From Streptococcus parasanguinis (GTDB lineage Bacteria; Bacillota; Bacilli; Lactobacillales; Streptococcaceae): a stretch of DNA of 64,000 nt. A program made the translations under genes and the position numbers. This document shows, piece after piece, positions 16,145 to 40,250 of the stretch. The stretch's first letter is position 1; every line of letters starts with the position of its first letter. The notes beneath the pieces are model-generated. The model saw only the letters and a program-made list of their open reading frames with translations. It was not told the DNA's origin and did not search any database. The stretch lies in the NCBI GenBank assembly GCA_018379295.1, contig JAGZVW010000003.1, forward strand, positions 6,111 to 70,110, in the 5' to 3' direction.

Positions 16145-16195
16145 AGTGATAACTAATTTGTCGTGTGCTTTATTTGAAATATTGTCCAAATAAGA

Positions 16196-16247
16196 GCTTA
16201 CAGCAGTTAAATCTTACTTGAATAAGTCGATTTAGCTGCTCTTTTTG
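16196..16247 (+). terminator. Hairpin plus T-run. It is either the pbp1b terminator or an attenuator/sRNA 3' end.
   Basis: 'cagcagttaaatc-N15-gatttagctgctcttttt'. Confidence 0.55.
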
Positions 16248-23820: not shown

Positions 23821-23828
23821 GAAAATAA

Positions 23829-23857
23829 GTCGGAACTACAAGTTCCGGCTTTTTTTG
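23829..23857 (+). terminator. rpoC terminator
   Basis: 'gtcggaactacaagttccggcttttttt'. Confidence 0.8.
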
Positions 23858-24050
23858 AAAAAATTATAAAAATTTATTATTTGAAAAATAATTGTATAAT
23901 TATTGAATTATTTTTTTACCAAAAATATTAGCCCGGTAAAAGTCGTGCTGTAAATACTTACAATTAGTGATTATATGGATATGTATTCTAAACGTCAAAA
24001 TAATAAAATGACTAACTATTAGTAATTTCTTTATAAAACCCAAAATCGGT

Positions 24051-24079
24051 TTGACATTTAAAGTCATTGGCGGTAGAAT
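24051..24079 (+). promoter_or_regulatory. Canonical sigma-A promoter (TTGACA-17-TAGAAT) driving the EPS-like operon
   Basis: -35 at 24051-24056, -10 at 24074-24079. It sits at the 3' end of a ~280-bp extremely AT-rich spacer. Confidence 0.65.
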
Positions 24080-24141
24080 GAAAAAAGATGTACACAAATT
24101 AAAAAAATGTCGAATTACATGCATGTCGACGGGGGAAGTTT

Positions 24142-25296
24142 ATGGGAAAATTGAAAATAATGGTTGTGTTTGGGACGCGACCGGAGGCCATTAAAATGGC
24201 CCCTTTGGTGTTGGAGTTGCAAAAACAAAAGGAGGTTATTGAGACAATTACGGTGGTCACTGCCCAGCACCGTCAAATGCTGGACCAGGTTTTAGAAACC
24301 TTTAACATCGTACCTGATTACGATTTGGATATTATGGGGAAAAGCCAGACCTTATTAGACATTACCTCTAAAATTCTGAATCAATTAGATCCAGTTATCA
24401 AAAAAGAAAAGCCGGATATGGTGCTCGTCCATGGAGATACGACCACTACCTTTGCGGCTAGTCTGGTTGCCTTTTACAATCAAGTCCGCATTGGTCACGT
24501 CGAAGCTGGTTTGAGAACCTTTGATAAATATTCTCCATATCCAGAAGAGATGAACCGTCAAATGACGGATGATTTAGCGGATCTGTATTTTGCGCCGACG
24601 GGCGAAAGTAAGGCCAATCTCTTAAAAGAAAATCATCCGGAATCTTCTATTGTGGTGACAGGAAATACTGCCATTGATGCACTGAAACTCACGGTTCAAG
24701 AGGACTATCACCACGAAGTGTTAGATCAATTGGATCCAGATAAAAAAGTCATCCTGGTCACCATGCATCGAAGAGAAAATCAAGGCCAACCCATGCGAGC
24801 GGTCTTTGGAGCTCTGAGAGAAATGGTGGATCAAGAACCGACTATTGAAGTGGTTTACCCAGTGCATCTTAGTCCAGCGGTCCAAGAGGCGGCAAACGAT
24901 CTATTAGGAGATCATGATCGGATCCACCTCATTGAGCCTCTAGATGTGCTAGATTTCCACAACTTAGCTTCGAGAAGTTACTTTATCATGTCGGATTCAG
25001 GTGGGGTGCAAGAGGAGGCGCCATCATTAGGGAAACCGGTATTGGTATTGCGTGATACAACAGAACGCCCAGAAGGGGTCAAAGCAGGGACTTTGAAATT
25101 AGTTGGTACGGATCCTGCCGTCGTCAAATCCACGATGACGGAGCTCTTAACCAACGAACATCTTTATCTAGAAATGGCAAATGCCCGAAATCCTTATGGA
25201 GATGGAAGAGCTTCTGAGCGAATCGTGCAAGCTATTAAACATTACTTTGGCCAGGGAGATGCTGCTGAAGAATTTCATGAGGGAGAGAAAGAATAA
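24142..25296 (+). CDS. UDP-N-acetylglucosamine 2-epimerase (non-hydrolysing; WecB/MnaA family)
   Basis: 'MVVFGTRPEAIKMAPLV' N-terminus and 'HVEAGLRT' motif. 384 aa. Confidence 0.9.
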   Translation: MGKLKIMVVFGTRPEAIKMAPLVLELQKQKEVIETITVVTAQHRQMLDQVLETFNIVPDYDLDIMGKSQTLLDITSKILNQLDPVIKKEKPDMVLVHGDTTTTFAASLVAFYNQVRIGHVEAGLRTFDKYSPYPEEMNRQMTDDLADLYFAPTGESKANLLKENHPESSIVVTGNTAIDALKLTVQEDYHHEVLDQLDPDKKVILVTMHRRENQGQPMRAVFGALREMVDQEPTIEVVYPVHLSPAVQEAANDLLGDHDRIHLIEPLDVLDFHNLASRSYFIMSDSGGVQEEAPSLGKPVLVLRDTTERPEGVKAGTLKLVGTDPAVVKSTMTELLTNEHLYLEMANARNPYGDGRASERIVQAIKHYFGQGDAAEEFHEGEKE

Positions 25297-26085
25297 ATGA
25301 AAAAAACGGAAAAGTTAAGTAGATGGTTGCTAATTTTGATTGTTTTCGAAGTACTTCTTTTACTTTACTGCTTGTTTTTTGCAAGAGAGATTCTGATTGA
25401 AGAAGGATTATTCTTTGTTTTAGGATTATTTTCTGCTATTGTTTTATCAGATTTGTTGTTGACATGGACCATCCTGTTGTCATTTGCCCTAGGGATTGTC
25501 TTTTTGGTGGCGGGTGTTGTCTATATCCCATTTCATCAAGCCTTGCTTCTGCTCTTTAGTTTTCCAATCTTGATTGGAATTTTGACCCAAATTCGCTACC
25601 ACCTCTTTAAAGAGATTGCAAAAGTGAAGGATCAAGAGCCAGAAGCTTACGCAGATTACCGCAACCGCATCGCTTCTTATGGTGGGGAAACCAATGATAC
25701 GATTCAAGCCTTACTCATTCACTGGTCGCACGAGGAATTGTTCTTCCAATTGCAGCCGAGAGAATATAATCGGACCTTGAACCAAATCAACTATTTGGTA
25801 ACGCATCATCTAAAGCCAAATGAAAGCTTGTATTATGTATCAGACGGTAATTTCTTGATCTTATCTTCTGATAGCGAGCGGGATCTGAAGGGCGATTATA
25901 TGACAGTCTTAAAACCACAGTTGGAAGGACTGGTGTTCCAAGGCGAAGATGGGGTGCAAGCCATCCAATTTCAGTCCGGCTTTCTTGTAGTGGATCAATC
26001 CAATCGCACCAAATACCATCGCTATAAAGAAATGATTCGTTACTTAAAACGTCAACTTGAAACAGATATTATTGTGGAATATTAG
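25297..26085 (+). CDS. Membrane protein of unknown function: N-terminal ~4 TM plus a ~140-aa cytoplasmic domain
   Basis: TAAATG junction with the epimerase. No family recognised by eye. The cytoplasmic domain begins '...DYRNRIASYGGETND'. Confidence 0.6.
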   Translation: MKKTEKLSRWLLILIVFEVLLLLYCLFFAREILIEEGLFFVLGLFSAIVLSDLLLTWTILLSFALGIVFLVAGVVYIPFHQALLLLFSFPILIGILTQIRYHLFKEIAKVKDQEPEAYADYRNRIASYGGETNDTIQALLIHWSHEELFFQLQPREYNRTLNQINYLVTHHLKPNESLYYVSDGNFLILSSDSERDLKGDYMTVLKPQLEGLVFQGEDGVQAIQFQSGFLVVDQSNRTKYHRYKEMIRYLKRQLETDIIVEY

Positions 26086-26094
26086 GAGGAAAAC

Positions 26095-26235
26095 ATGTCT
26101 CTTACAAATATATTTTTTAATATAGCTGTAGGCATTAGTGTATTTTTTGCCTTGTGCTTTATTGTATTATTTGTAGCTTATACGGTGATTTACCGCCGTG
26201 TCAATAAAAACTTTAAGGCGGTGGACCATGATTAG
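26095..26235 (+). CDS. Small (46 aa) single-TM peptide; its stop overlaps the GT2 synthase start
   Basis: Not in the ORF track because it is under 60 aa. RBS AGGAGGA lies 4 nt upstream. 'MSLTNIFFNIAVGISVFFALCFIVLFVAYTVIYRRVNKNFKAVDHD'. Its stop overlaps ATG 26228 (ATGATTAG). Confidence 0.45.
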   Translation: MSLTNIFFNIAVGISVFFALCFIVLFVAYTVIYRRVNKNFKAVDHD

Positions 26236-27538
26236 TCAAATTGTGATGATTATTGCCTTGATTTCGATTTGGCTGTCCTTAGCCTGGGGCCTAGTAATCC
26301 TCTTTTCAGCCGTTCATTTTTGGTTTAAACACAGTGATTTTCGTGTCAATACGGATCCGCTTCCTTATTATCCAAAAGTGACGATCGTTGTGCCCGCCCA
26401 TAATGAGGATGTGGTCATTGCACAGACAGCCAAAGCGATCCTTGATTTGAACTACCCACATGATCGTGTAGAATTACTACTGTTTGCGGATAATTGTTCC
26501 GACCGCACTTATGAAGAGTGTTTGGCAGTTAAAGCATTGCCAGAGTATGCAGGACGTGATTTGACCATTATCAATCGCAGTGGGACAGGTGGGAAAGCCG
26601 GTGTGTTAAATGACGCTTTGGCCATGGCGACCGGAGACTATATCTGTGTCTATGATGCAGATGCCATGCCTGAAAAGAATGCTCTTTATTTCCTTGTGAA
26701 AGAAGTGCTCAAAGATCCAGAGCGTCATGTGGCTTCTTTTGGTCGCAATAAAACGCGGAATGCCGGTCAAAACTTCTTGACCCGCTGTATCAACCAAGAA
26801 ATTGTTGTCACCCAACGGGTTCACCATGTAGGCATGTGGCATCTCTTTAAGATTGGACGGATTCCAGGAACCAACTTCATTATTCAAACTGAATTTGTCA
26901 AGAGTATTGGGGGATGGAAAAACGGTGCCTTAACAGAGGATACTGATATTTCCTTTAAGATTATGCAAAGTGGGAAGTTGATTGCTCTAGCCTATAATTC
27001 AGAAGCATTTCAACAGGAACCTGAGACCCTGAAGAGTTATTATATGCAACGGAAACGTTGGGCCAAAGGGAATTATGAAGTGGTTCTTTCCAACTTCAAA
27101 CATTTATTTGGTAAGGGAAATTGGCGCGTGAAGTTAGAAGTGACCAACTATTCCTGTATCTTCTTCTGGTTCAATGCAGCTATCGTCTTATCAGACTTGA
27201 TCTTTTTTGCCAATATTCTGGCCATGTGTCTCCATACAGTGGTGCCAGGAGTGCAAATTCCATTTGCCTTTGATTCAGAAAATATCTATATTGCGCAATT
27301 GATGTTGTTCAATTGGATCTTGATGATTGGGCTCTACTTACTTCAGATTAATGTGGCTCTTGCCTCACAATTTGGCCAAGCCACTACCAAGCAAATTTGG
27401 TTGGCCTTAGCTGCCTACTTCACCTATTCTCAACTGTTTATCATTGTGTCAATTGATGCCATCTCTTCGATTGTGATGGATAAACTATTGCACCGGAAAG
27501 AAACCAAATGGGTTAAAACAAAACGATTCGCAGGATAG
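26228..27538 (+). CDS. Processive family-2 glycosyltransferase (PgaC/IcaA/NodC/HAS-like HexNAc-polymer synthase)
   Basis: 2 N-terminal TM and ~4 C-terminal TM. 'YDADAMP' (DxD), 'LTEDTDISF' (TED) and 'QRKRWAKG' (QxxRW) motifs. An alternative GTG start at 26198 is possible. Confidence 0.85.
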   Translation: MISQIVMIIALISIWLSLAWGLVILFSAVHFWFKHSDFRVNTDPLPYYPKVTIVVPAHNEDVVIAQTAKAILDLNYPHDRVELLLFADNCSDRTYEECLAVKALPEYAGRDLTIINRSGTGGKAGVLNDALAMATGDYICVYDADAMPEKNALYFLVKEVLKDPERHVASFGRNKTRNAGQNFLTRCINQEIVVTQRVHHVGMWHLFKIGRIPGTNFIIQTEFVKSIGGWKNGALTEDTDISFKIMQSGKLIALAYNSEAFQQEPETLKSYYMQRKRWAKGNYEVVLSNFKHLFGKGNWRVKLEVTNYSCIFFWFNAAIVLSDLIFFANILAMCLHTVVPGVQIPFAFDSENIYIAQLMLFNWILMIGLYLLQINVALASQFGQATTKQIWLALAAYFTYSQLFIIVSIDAISSIVMDKLLHRKETKWVKTKRFAG

Positions 27539-27546
27539 GAGAGATT

Positions 27547-28650
27547 ATGAATACGAAAAAGATGAGATATGTATGGTTTCTAGTCATCCTTTGCATTTTC
27601 TGTTTGACCTTGTTTTTAGCGAGAACGAGAAGTAAAGTGGACATGCGAAATCGAATTTATCGTCAGTGGAATGAGCATTTTGTTGTTTCAAAAGGAAAAG
27701 AATCCTATGTTCGAACTACCAATGATAGCAATCAAACGGTGGTTTTATCCGAAGCGCAAAGTTATGGAATGCTCATTACTGTTGCGGCTGCTAAAAAAGG
27801 ACAAGCCCAACAAGCAGACTTTGACCGACTCTATCAATATTATCTAAATCATCGCTTGGAAGGTACCCAATTGATGTCTTGGAAACAAACCATCAGCAAT
27901 GGAAAAGCAAAGGATGAGGACCATAATGCCACAGATGGAGATCTCTATATTGCCTATGCTCTTCTAAAAGCTGCTCAGCAATGGCCAAAGCAAGCCAAAG
28001 ACTACCAGGCTCAAGCCAAAGCGATTTTAGAAGATATTCTCGCACACAACTACAATGAAGAAACCGGTGTGTTAACGGTGGGAAATTGGGCCAATCAGGA
28101 TTCGGAATTCTATCATTTGATGCGGACGTCTGATACACTGCCAGCGCAATTCCAGATCTTTTATGAAGTGACAAAAGATTCGAAGTGGTTGGACATCAAA
28201 GAAAAGATGTTGCAGCAACTCCAAACGATCAGCTCCCAAACAAAAACAGGTTTACTACCTGATTTCATCTGGGTAGATGAGCAAGGAACGCGCGTAGCGG
28301 ATCCCAAGACGATTGAATCCAAGTATGATGGAGCCTACTCGTATAATGCTTGTCGCCTTCCATATAATCTTGTTCAAAGTAAGGATGCAACCAGTCAAAA
28401 ATTGGTGAAAAAGATGTTAAACTTTTTCAAGAGTCAAAGAAACCTGTACGCGGGTTATGACTTGAAAGGAAAAGCCTTGAACAATCATCAGGCAGCAAGT
28501 TTTTTGGCACCGATAGTCTATGCTTCTGAACACGAAAAAGGCTATCTGAAGTTGGTGCAACAGAATAAGTATATCTTCACACAAGATCTACCTCTGAACA
28601 ACTATTATGATGCAACCATGACAACCATGATTGCACTTGAATTGTTCTAA
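27547..28650 (+). CDS. Membrane-anchored glycoside hydrolase family 8 (BcsZ/PssZ/chitosanase-like)
   Basis: N-terminal signal anchor. Catalytic 'LSEAQSYGM' and 'NATDGDLYIAYALLKA' GH8 motifs. Confidence 0.8.
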   Translation: MNTKKMRYVWFLVILCIFCLTLFLARTRSKVDMRNRIYRQWNEHFVVSKGKESYVRTTNDSNQTVVLSEAQSYGMLITVAAAKKGQAQQADFDRLYQYYLNHRLEGTQLMSWKQTISNGKAKDEDHNATDGDLYIAYALLKAAQQWPKQAKDYQAQAKAILEDILAHNYNEETGVLTVGNWANQDSEFYHLMRTSDTLPAQFQIFYEVTKDSKWLDIKEKMLQQLQTISSQTKTGLLPDFIWVDEQGTRVADPKTIESKYDGAYSYNACRLPYNLVQSKDATSQKLVKKMLNFFKSQRNLYAGYDLKGKALNNHQAASFLAPIVYASEHEKGYLKLVQQNKYIFTQDLPLNNYYDATMTTMIALELF

Positions 28651-28659
28651 ATACTTGAG

Positions 28660-28712
28660 AAGAGAGAGTTCCCAGGATGGCTCGTCATTTTGTTGGGACT
28701 CTCTTTTTTGAT
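28660..28712 (+). terminator. Terminator of the 5-gene EPS-like operon
   Basis: 'agagagttcccagg...ttgggactctctttttt'. Confidence 0.6.
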
Positions 28713-28858
28713 TCTCGAAAAAAGGACCCAATAGCAATTAGGCAGTCTATTTTTGAAAAATAATTGTGAAAATCACCTGAAAACTACCTGAAAAATCATG
28801 CTCTGAGCAGAAAACTTTTATTCTCAAAGGATTTTCTATATAATAGAGGATACAAAGG

Positions 28859-39925: not shown

Positions 39926-39965
39926 TCTCTCTTCTTTGCATCATAAAAAAACAATCCCTGCTCTA

Positions 39966-40215
39966 GGAATTGTTGAGATTGAAGACAAAGTCTTCTTAAA
40001 AAACTTTCCTTAGGTGAGTACGGACGTCAGCGAACTTCTATGAAGTTCCATGACTAATTATTGAGCCTAAGGTCTCAATAATTCCGAGTGCCTGAAACTG
40101 AGTCGTTTCAGGCACTTTTCTCACGGCGGAAAGTTTCATTAGATGACTGAATAACTATAACGAGTATAATTTTTAAAGAATTGATTGGATTTTATAAAAG
40201 ATTCGTTTCTCTACG
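39966..40215. repeat. Composite BOX element (~250 bp) inserted in the folK terminator
   Basis: Its 5' module is shared with 6997-7040. It contains 'acgtcagcg' (boxA-like) and several internal hairpins. It is flanked by halves of a split terminator stem ('acaatccct'). Confidence 0.65.
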
Positions 40216-40250
40216 CTCTCAACAATCCCTCGAGCAGGGATTGTTTTTGT
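40216..40250 (+). terminator. Terminator of the fol operon (intact copy, downstream of the BOX insertion)
   Basis: 'acaatccctcgagcagggattgtttttgtttg': perfect 9-bp stem plus T-run. Confidence 0.75.

Follow-up and report, generated by a model that had tools for sequence, protein, structure and literature searches.

A predicted Pss-like exopolysaccharide synthase operon with a degenerate GGDEF-fold partner protein between rpoC and the comG genes of Streptococcus parasanguinis

A stretch of 64,000 nucleotides from Streptococcus parasanguinis (contig JAGZVW010000003.1; here referred to as the window, whose numbering is used throughout) carries a compact operon of five genes downstream of rpoC, all on the + strand. 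Its sigma-70-type promoter, TTGACA-17-TAGAAT (24051-24079), was the top + strand match in the region with a score of 11/12. It is followed by genes for a non-hydrolysing UDP-GlcNAc (N-acetylglucosamine) 2-epimerase of the WecB/MnaA type (24142-25296), a membrane protein of 262 amino acids (aa) with four transmembrane (TM) helices and a predicted cytoplasmic domain of degenerate GGDEF fold resembling Listeria PssE (open reading frame 2, ORF2; 25297-26085), a 46-aa single-TM protein encoded by a micro-ORF (26095-26235), a 436-aa PssC-like family 2 glycosyltransferase (GT2) of the processive type (26228-27538), and a signal-anchored 367-aa glycanase of glycoside hydrolase family 8 (GH8; 27547-28650). 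An intrinsic terminator identified by RNA folding (28657-28709) closes the operon, and the DUF1033 gene and comGA-G lie downstream. RpoC and the epimerase, ORF2, GT2 and GH8 proteins have exact matches among S. parasanguinis database entries.

Promoter, five genes and terminator form one unit. The epimerase gene and ORF2 meet at a TAAATG junction, ORF2 and the micro-ORF are separated by 9 nt, the micro-ORF overlaps the GT2 gene by 8 nt (ATGATTAG), and an 8-nt spacer separates the GT2 and GH8 genes; a purine-rich, Shine-Dalgarno-like stretch lies immediately 5' of all five starts. The GTG at 26198 was considered as the GT2 start and dropped in favour of the ATG at 26228, the homologues all being 436 aa long. 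The terminator had a folding energy of -26.1 kcal/mol (z -3.68, with none of 200 shuffles equally stable) and is followed by UUUUUU; a simple terminator scan missed it, probably owing to an internal bulge in the stem. Ratios of nonsynonymous to synonymous substitution rates (dN/dS) of 0.02-0.14 against a relative 93-98% identical indicate purifying selection on all five genes. A preliminary description of this DNA, made from the letters alone, had claimed five tightly packed, coupled genes as one unit; both the TAAATG and the ATGATTAG junctions were borne out, the promoter lies where it had been placed, and the terminator, given there as about 28660-28712, was found within a few bases of that position. 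The families it had named also held in hidden Markov model searches, with Epimerase_2, family-2 glycosyltransferase and Glyco_hydro_8 models all matching.

The GT2 belongs to the Glyco_tranf_2_3/Glycos_transf_2 families and carries DAD at residue 143, TED at 236 and QRKRW at 274, as expected from the DxD/TED/QxxRW motifs proposed for it earlier. Hydropathy analysis gave one strong N-terminal hydrophobic segment, then the GT-A domain and several C-terminal TM segments, right after which the protein ends at residue 436. In BLASTP comparison with Listeria PssC it aligned end to end (33% identity over 437 columns, 246 bits, E 1e-81), and a C-terminal ETKW.KT.RF is common to both proteins. Escherichia coli PgaC aligned over 332 aa at 27% identity (93 bits), and BcsA chains at an E-value of about 1e-12. 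These alignments identify the enzyme as a PssC homologue, nearer to PssC than to PgaC. The best NCBIfam model, PgaC_IcaA (TIGR03937, E 8e-37), was matched at 127 bits against a cut-off of 422 bits, and the CelA model at 82 bits against 699.

The other enzymes could be assigned with similar searches. The epimerase matched Epimerase_2 (PF02350) at E 4.5e-124 and reached 522.6 bits with the wecB model TIGR00236, well above the 210-bit equivalog cut-off, in agreement with its earlier naming as a UDP-GlcNAc 2-epimerase; the model for the hydrolysing enzyme NeuC gave 100 bits against a cut-off of 236. Its dN/dS was 0.04, and it is presumed to supply UDP-ManNAc (UDP-N-acetylmannosamine). The hydrolase, previously described as a signal-anchored GH8, matched Glyco_hydro_8 (PF01270) at E 1e-30 (107 bits against a 24-bit cut-off), contains the PROSITE signature of the family, ATDGDLYIAYALLKAAQQW, at residues 128-146 and the catalytic-Glu motif SEAQSYG at residue 68, and has one N-terminal anchor helix by hydropathy. 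Its best NCBIfam model was BcsZ (E 5e-19), with 68 bits against a cut-off of 299. A 335-aa version of the hydrolase on some S. infantis contigs reflects the start chosen by the gene caller and nothing else, the DNA being identical. The micro-peptide, a single TM helix by hydropathy, proved to be a real gene as claimed earlier: it is conserved in position and sequence in seven loci, as far as Weissella and Lactiplantibacillus plantarum, it keeps an IYxRV motif throughout its relatives with F7, F18, F26, Y33, R35 and V36 invariant, and its dN/dS of 0.12-0.25 indicates purifying selection. No similarity between the micro-peptide and PgaD was detectable.

The product of ORF2 has four TM helices by hydropathy, as the preliminary description had stated, followed by a cytoplasmic domain that it had called unassignable; this second part did not stand. 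Direct searches of Pfam (E<=0.1), NCBIfam and PDB sequences returned no true match and no PF00990, and the weak PDB matches were artefacts in which the matched part was the His-tag/TEV (tobacco etch virus) sequence of the deposited chains. The family, labelled 'hypothetical' in databases, is small (93 representatives in a set of 1.84 billion proteins), and all members with an organism name came from Lactobacillales, including Streptococcus, Liquorilactobacillus, Limosilactobacillus, Lactobacillus, Lactiplantibacillus, Levilactobacillus, Oenococcus and Weissella. Some distant relatives gave sub-threshold PF00990 matches, and some are named GGDEF domain-containing in UniRef. A profile built from 36 members matched Listeria PssE (83% probability, E 8.9e-6, 183 columns), a protein alike in size and in its multi-TM N-terminal region, and the two have HW..FQ in strand 1 and a C-terminal LE[TY]D in common. 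The classical cyclases PleD and WspR were matched more weakly (E 2.5e-3), and the PssE and cyclase alignments fell in one register.

In this register the active-site motif GG[DE]EF is replaced by SDGNF (residues 182-186) and the RxxD inhibitory site (I-site), which reads RTSD in PssE and RAID in PleD, by K173-P-N-E176. H142 stands at what we take to be the position of a metal-binding Asp of PleD (D327). RxxD was present in 1 of 131 streptococcal-type ORF2 sequences, MYND and KPNE being the common forms. The alignments identify the cytoplasmic domain as a degenerate GGDEF fold of the PssE type, in which the fold alone is retained and, in streptococci, both the cyclase site and the RxxD I-site have been lost. 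The remark in the preliminary description that this type of organism is not expected to use cyclic di-GMP (c-di-GMP) is thereby tied directly to the operon. The C-terminal R-x-L-E-T-D-I-I-V-E-Y is nearly invariant across the whole family (RQLETDIIVEY in the window), and dN/dS for the cytoplasmic domain was 0.096; the last residues of the tail, 258-262, had a pLDDT (predicted local distance difference test score) below 50 in the predicted model. Of the 20 members longer than 267 aa, mainly from Lactobacillaceae, 17 share an Arg that stands one residue before the position of the canonical I-site Arg and precedes a conserved Glu or Asp (R-L-P-S-E, in the columns of window residues 172-176), an arrangement that may represent a shifted I-site one residue out of the RxxD register.

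Such conservation could mean that the domain is still a nucleotide sensor that gates the synthase, with c-di-AMP, another nucleotide or c-di-GMP from neighbouring species as its ligand. Purifying selection on the domain (dN/dS about 0.1) and its own conserved motifs (HW[SA]H, IQFQ and RxLETDIIVEY) would be in line with this, as would the shifted R-x-x-x-E of Lactobacillaceae and the window protein's conservative K and E at both I-site positions. However, streptococcal homologues differ freely at the I-site positions (MYND, KPNE, NENE, IQDE and others), and the residues aligned with the GTP- and metal-binding residues of PleD are replaced; we consider a nucleotide sensor unlikely. It is rather easier, if still tentatively, to envisage that the retained fold has been repurposed without c-di-GMP, either as a ligand-independent, obligatory activator that would fit into the synthase by way of the RxLETDIIVEY tail or as a sensor for some other signal.

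ORF2, micro-peptide, GT2 and GH8 form a core that is found repeatedly across Lactobacillales. In L. plantarum it forms a cassette on mobilisable plasmids of 63-119 kb, between resolvase and IS3/ISL3 transposases (L089:4835-12672 and L090; PLSDB matches H1-H10), where a 48-aa micro-ORF is present and unannotated; identity to the window proteins was 65% for GT2, 40% for GH8 and 24% for ORF2. The chromosome of Weissella cibaria carries the same core with the epimerase as the last gene, and a metagenomic contig (L098) has the gene order exactly as in the window. Counterparts of PssA, PssB and PssD were found neither in the window unit nor in any related locus examined, and a full-text literature search found no published study of the operon in streptococci or lactobacilli. 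The Listeria pssA-E locus used here was taken from a chromosome-sized PLSDB record (L099). The PLSDB entries NZ_CP030101.1, NZ_LR134402.1 and NZ_CP093325.1 are chromosome-sized Listeria/Bacillus replicons (0.57-5.5 Mb), a caveat for plasmid statistics. Directly upstream of the W. cibaria module lies a gene for an Mga-family regulator (L097:5308-6816), a candidate transcriptional regulator of the module; none adjoins the streptococcal copies.

The inserted block begins after the rpoC intrinsic terminator (23827-23851, + strand; an 11-pair stem and a T run in the terminator scan), from which the operon is separated by a leader of 26% GC; Rfam models gave no riboswitch or leader RNA in the operon 5' region. 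A scan of genome contigs for the rpoC C-terminus yielded mostly non-streptococcal genomes and two streptococcal loci, and synteny was then read from contigs encoding homologues. Close relatives of the window keep the order rpoC-operon-DUF1033-comG. In S. gallinaceus, rpoB, rpoC and the DUF1033 gene adjoin, with 114 bp between the latter two, an empty site that agrees with the direct rpoC-DUF1033 adjacency the preliminary description had given for related streptococci. The operon lies between a GNAT gene and a HAD/PPIase gene in S. oralis, and between rpsR and the orthologous GNAT gene in S. infantis; nothing of it was found within 10 kb after rpoC in S. oralis ATCC 9811. Promoter and five genes thus occupy three streptococcal chromosomal sites, in addition to the one empty site. 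A PTS (phosphotransferase system)/PRD-regulator sugar island lies between DUF1033 and comGA in S. gallinaceus (L093:9497-14964), so the cargo taken up by the rpoC-comG neighbourhood differs between streptococci.

Nucleotide similarity between the S. parasanguinis copy and those of S. oralis and S. infantis runs from the epimerase ATG to the GH8 stop, and upstream of this a 30-nt promoter core, including the spacer, is about 87% conserved in the latter two species while the rest of the leader is not. Since similarity is limited to these two parts, the moving unit is promoter plus five genes. Within 24051-24112 the promoter spacer is conserved in all three species, as is a CAAATTAA box about 20 nt downstream, which suggests an operator overlapping the promoter. 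A repeat search also found a 16-nt direct repeat (TTTGAAAAATAATTGT) flanking the block on the + strand (left copy 23880-23895, right copy 28752-28767), with these two exact copies and no others in the 64-kb window; none of 100 shuffles gave three matches at two or fewer mismatches. In relatives the repeat has drifted by at least 1 nt. It is a possible insertion footprint.

The preliminary description had seen an accessory insertion in a conserved backbone. The empty site in S. gallinaceus and the two alternative positions of the block, in S. oralis and in S. infantis, bear out the insertion; the notion of a rare accessory island was not sustained by composition, sampling and spread. The GC content of the operon is 0.415, compared with 0.422 for the window, and recent foreign acquisition was rejected in the absence of any compositional anomaly. 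In S. parasanguinis the operon genes were sampled about as often as the DUF1033 gene, and the operon is probably near-core in this species. It is a lineage-specific, long-resident insertion.

A near-core operon among housekeeping genes might be expected to serve the wall, and the classical use of UDP-ManNAc is in the linkage units of wall teichoic acid. The product could then be a glycopolymer anchored to the wall or to a lipid, for example a secondary cell-wall polymer or a decoration resembling teichoic acid, with GH8 acting in its remodelling. This is hard to reconcile with the QxxRW processive signature, the multi-TM build of the GT2 and its homology to BcsA and, over the full length, to PssC, or with an operon in which genes for a flippase, a ligase (LCP) and a priming transferase are lacking. 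NCBIfam scores of the GT2 to models of teichoic, teichuronic and Pgf enzymes were negligible. We regard an anchored glycopolymer as very improbable.

We think it reasonably likely that the operon is instead a self-contained, synthase-dependent exopolysaccharide module, a stripped-down relative of Pss that makes a beta-linked ManNAc polymer and moves as a block of promoter and five genes. By its published architecture, the Bacillus Yda system also appears to be a relative of the module. In such a module the epimerase, given its equivalog-level family match, would convert UDP-GlcNAc to UDP-ManNAc, and the PssC-like GT2 would polymerise and translocate a beta-linked N-acetylhexosamine (HexNAc) polymer, most likely of ManNAc and most likely beta-1,4-linked. 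A beta-linked HexNAc product is proposed because of the DxD/TED/QxxRW motifs, because PssC, BcsA and PgaC are homologues, and because of the type of linkage that GH8 enzymes cut; the beta-1,4 assignment draws partly on what is generally known of GH8 family activities and partly on solved GH8 relatives. ManNAc is preferred because the epimerase accompanies the module in either of two gene orders, and because PssC is the nearest characterised synthase and the Pss backbone is beta-1,4-ManNAc. ORF2 and the 46-aa peptide may be obligate membrane partners of the synthase, in view of their strict co-occurrence across genera and by analogy with PssE/YdaK and IcaD/PgaD, with the GGDEF-fold domain kept as a structural or activating subunit that perhaps docks via its conserved RxLETDIIVEY tail. 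Like PssZ, YdaJ and BcsZ, the signal-anchored GH8 would act outside the cell to trim or release the polymer, and control would be exerted mainly at the conserved promoter. Streptococci are reported typically to lack diguanylate cyclases and phosphodiesterases (PMC7112168), and with the I-site of ORF2 lost as well, activation of the synthase in streptococci is probably independent of c-di-GMP.

The enzymes could alternatively make a PNAG-like poly-GlcNAc of the Ica/Pga type or a chitin- or cellulose-like beta-glucan, the epimerase serving another pathway or modulating precursor pools. The best NCBIfam models of the GT2 and GH8, PgaC_IcaA and BcsZ, point in this direction, and the small membrane partner recalls IcaD/PgaD. 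However, both scores fall far below their cut-offs (127 against 422 bits and 68 against 299 bits), the operon contains no IcaB/PgaB-type deacetylase, PilZ domain or BcsB, the GT2 is far nearer to PssC (246 bits) than to PgaC (93 bits), and in both Streptococcus and Weissella the epimerase is linked to the module, in gene orders that are independent of each other. A poly-GlcNAc or glucan product therefore seems to us a doubtful alternative to the ManNAc polymer.

Several points nevertheless weigh against the ManNAc module as proposed, some of them favouring that alternative. The top PDB matches of the hydrolase were a beta-glucanase (5xd0, E 9e-35) and a chitosanase (1v5c), its solved relatives being glucanases and chitosanases, and no BLAST match to it was found in the Listeria records at E<=1e-10. 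The plasmid cassette of L. plantarum lacks the epimerase, so ManNAc may be non-obligatory or supplied by the host. At 33% identity to PssC the substrate specificity of the GT2 may differ, and its AlphaFold2 model, from a shallow alignment of sequences at least 87% identical, was unusable (pLDDT 50). The link between ORF2 and PssE is at the profile level (83% probability), with no significant match by BLASTP, and the K and E at the I-site positions of the window protein may still allow weak nucleotide binding. The absence of diguanylate cyclases in S. parasanguinis is taken from the literature at the level of the genus. Both composition and linkage of the ManNAc/HexNAc product are inferred from the genes, the case for ManNAc being strengthened by the presence of the epimerase in two gene orders.

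In the human mouth, S. parasanguinis, S. oralis and S. infantis rank with the most abundant of the early colonisers, and to our knowledge the matrix polymers of oral streptococci beyond glucans and capsules are poorly known. The operon predicts a further surface polysaccharide in these bacteria, and its 46-aa peptide would add to the micro-proteins that serve as glycan synthase subunits. The operon is, in addition, a natural experiment on what becomes of a c-di-GMP-gated synthase after loss of the messenger, with a fold under purifying selection and decayed binding motifs, unlike the deletion seen in Pel. If the GGDEF fold has indeed been repurposed, PssE/YdaK-type receptors would have a core structural role in synthase activation, one older than control by c-di-GMP and outliving it. 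If the product is as proposed, abundant oral streptococci of humans and food lactobacilli would share a widespread, unstudied surface polymer of poly-ManNAc type, defined by the five-gene module. The plasmid-borne Lactiplantibacillus cassette is relevant to strain differences in adhesion and texture among food and probiotic strains.

Two further RNA elements were found elsewhere in the window with Rfam. A Lacto-rpoB RNA (RF01709, 70 bits) lies in the rpoB leader (16156-16214), and Streptococcus sRNA 8, a small RNA (RF02616 SSRC8_2, 82.5 bits), lies on the - strand between the folate operon and a DUF1846 gene (39952-40241).

Compared with known systems, the operon is a minimal PssE/YdaK-type synthase system with a decayed c-di-GMP site rather than a categorically new mechanism. 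The preliminary description had drawn a parallel to Pss, Pga and Bcs in minimal form, and it was sustained most clearly for Pss, through the full-length homology to PssC, the PssE-type partner and the GH8. Like Listeria monocytogenes Pss, the window operon has a PssC-type GT2 (homologous over its full length, without orthology or specificity being implied), a partner of about 260-290 aa with a multi-TM N-terminus and a degenerate GGDEF domain, the use of a GH8 hydrolase, and a link to ManNAc. Unlike Pss, it lacks PssA, PssB (DUF2334) and PssD (BcsB-like), has a 46-aa micro-protein instead, includes the GH8 and epimerase genes, has lost the RxxD I-site, and belongs to a genus reported to be without c-di-GMP enzymes. 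As quoted in PMC5422440, the polymer made by Pss is a chain of beta-1,4-ManNAc that carries galactose decorations, and both PssE and YdaK require RxxD for exopolysaccharide activation (PMC4125290, PMC5422440). The Bacillus subtilis ydaJKLMN operon is alike by its published description, with a GH8 (YdaJ), a TM protein with a degenerate GGDEF domain (YdaK) and a GT2 (YdaM), and in both systems conservation is much stronger in the GT2 than in its partners (PMC13274460, Table 1, compared with the present identities). However, the window has no counterparts of YdaL and YdaN, and YdaK needs a diguanylate cyclase as well as RxxD (PMC5422440).

The parallels to PgaCD/IcaAD and Bcs are looser. PgaCD/IcaAD also combine a GT2 of about 410-440 aa with a small membrane partner, but the GT2 similarity is partial (27% over 332 aa) and below the model cut-off, and none of the five window products contains a deacetylase domain. 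In contrast to Bcs, the window GT2 has no PilZ domain and is accompanied by no BcsB, and the CelA and BcsZ scores are below the equivalog cut-offs. Closer at hand is a Pss-like operon of Enterococcus faecalis (L101:1542-10376, NZ_CP143580.1), whose GT2 is 36% identical to that of the window and whose 286-aa PssE orthologue (E 8e-40 to Listeria PssE) has also lost RxxD. It differs in keeping PssA-/PssB-like large genes (three large hypothetical genes) and in an unannotated 2-kb gap at the PssD-like position, and neither GH8 nor epimerase was found in the stretch examined; as a single observation, its RxxD loss may parallel the streptococcal case. The streptococcal Pel system, in which PelD is without GGDEF, is likewise a synthase-dependent exopolysaccharide system with a degenerated c-di-GMP receptor in a genus without c-di-GMP. 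Its synthase is PelF/PelG, compared with the GT2 of the window. There the GGDEF domain was deleted outright (PMC7112168), whereas in the window operon the fold has been kept under purifying selection and its binding motifs alone were lost.

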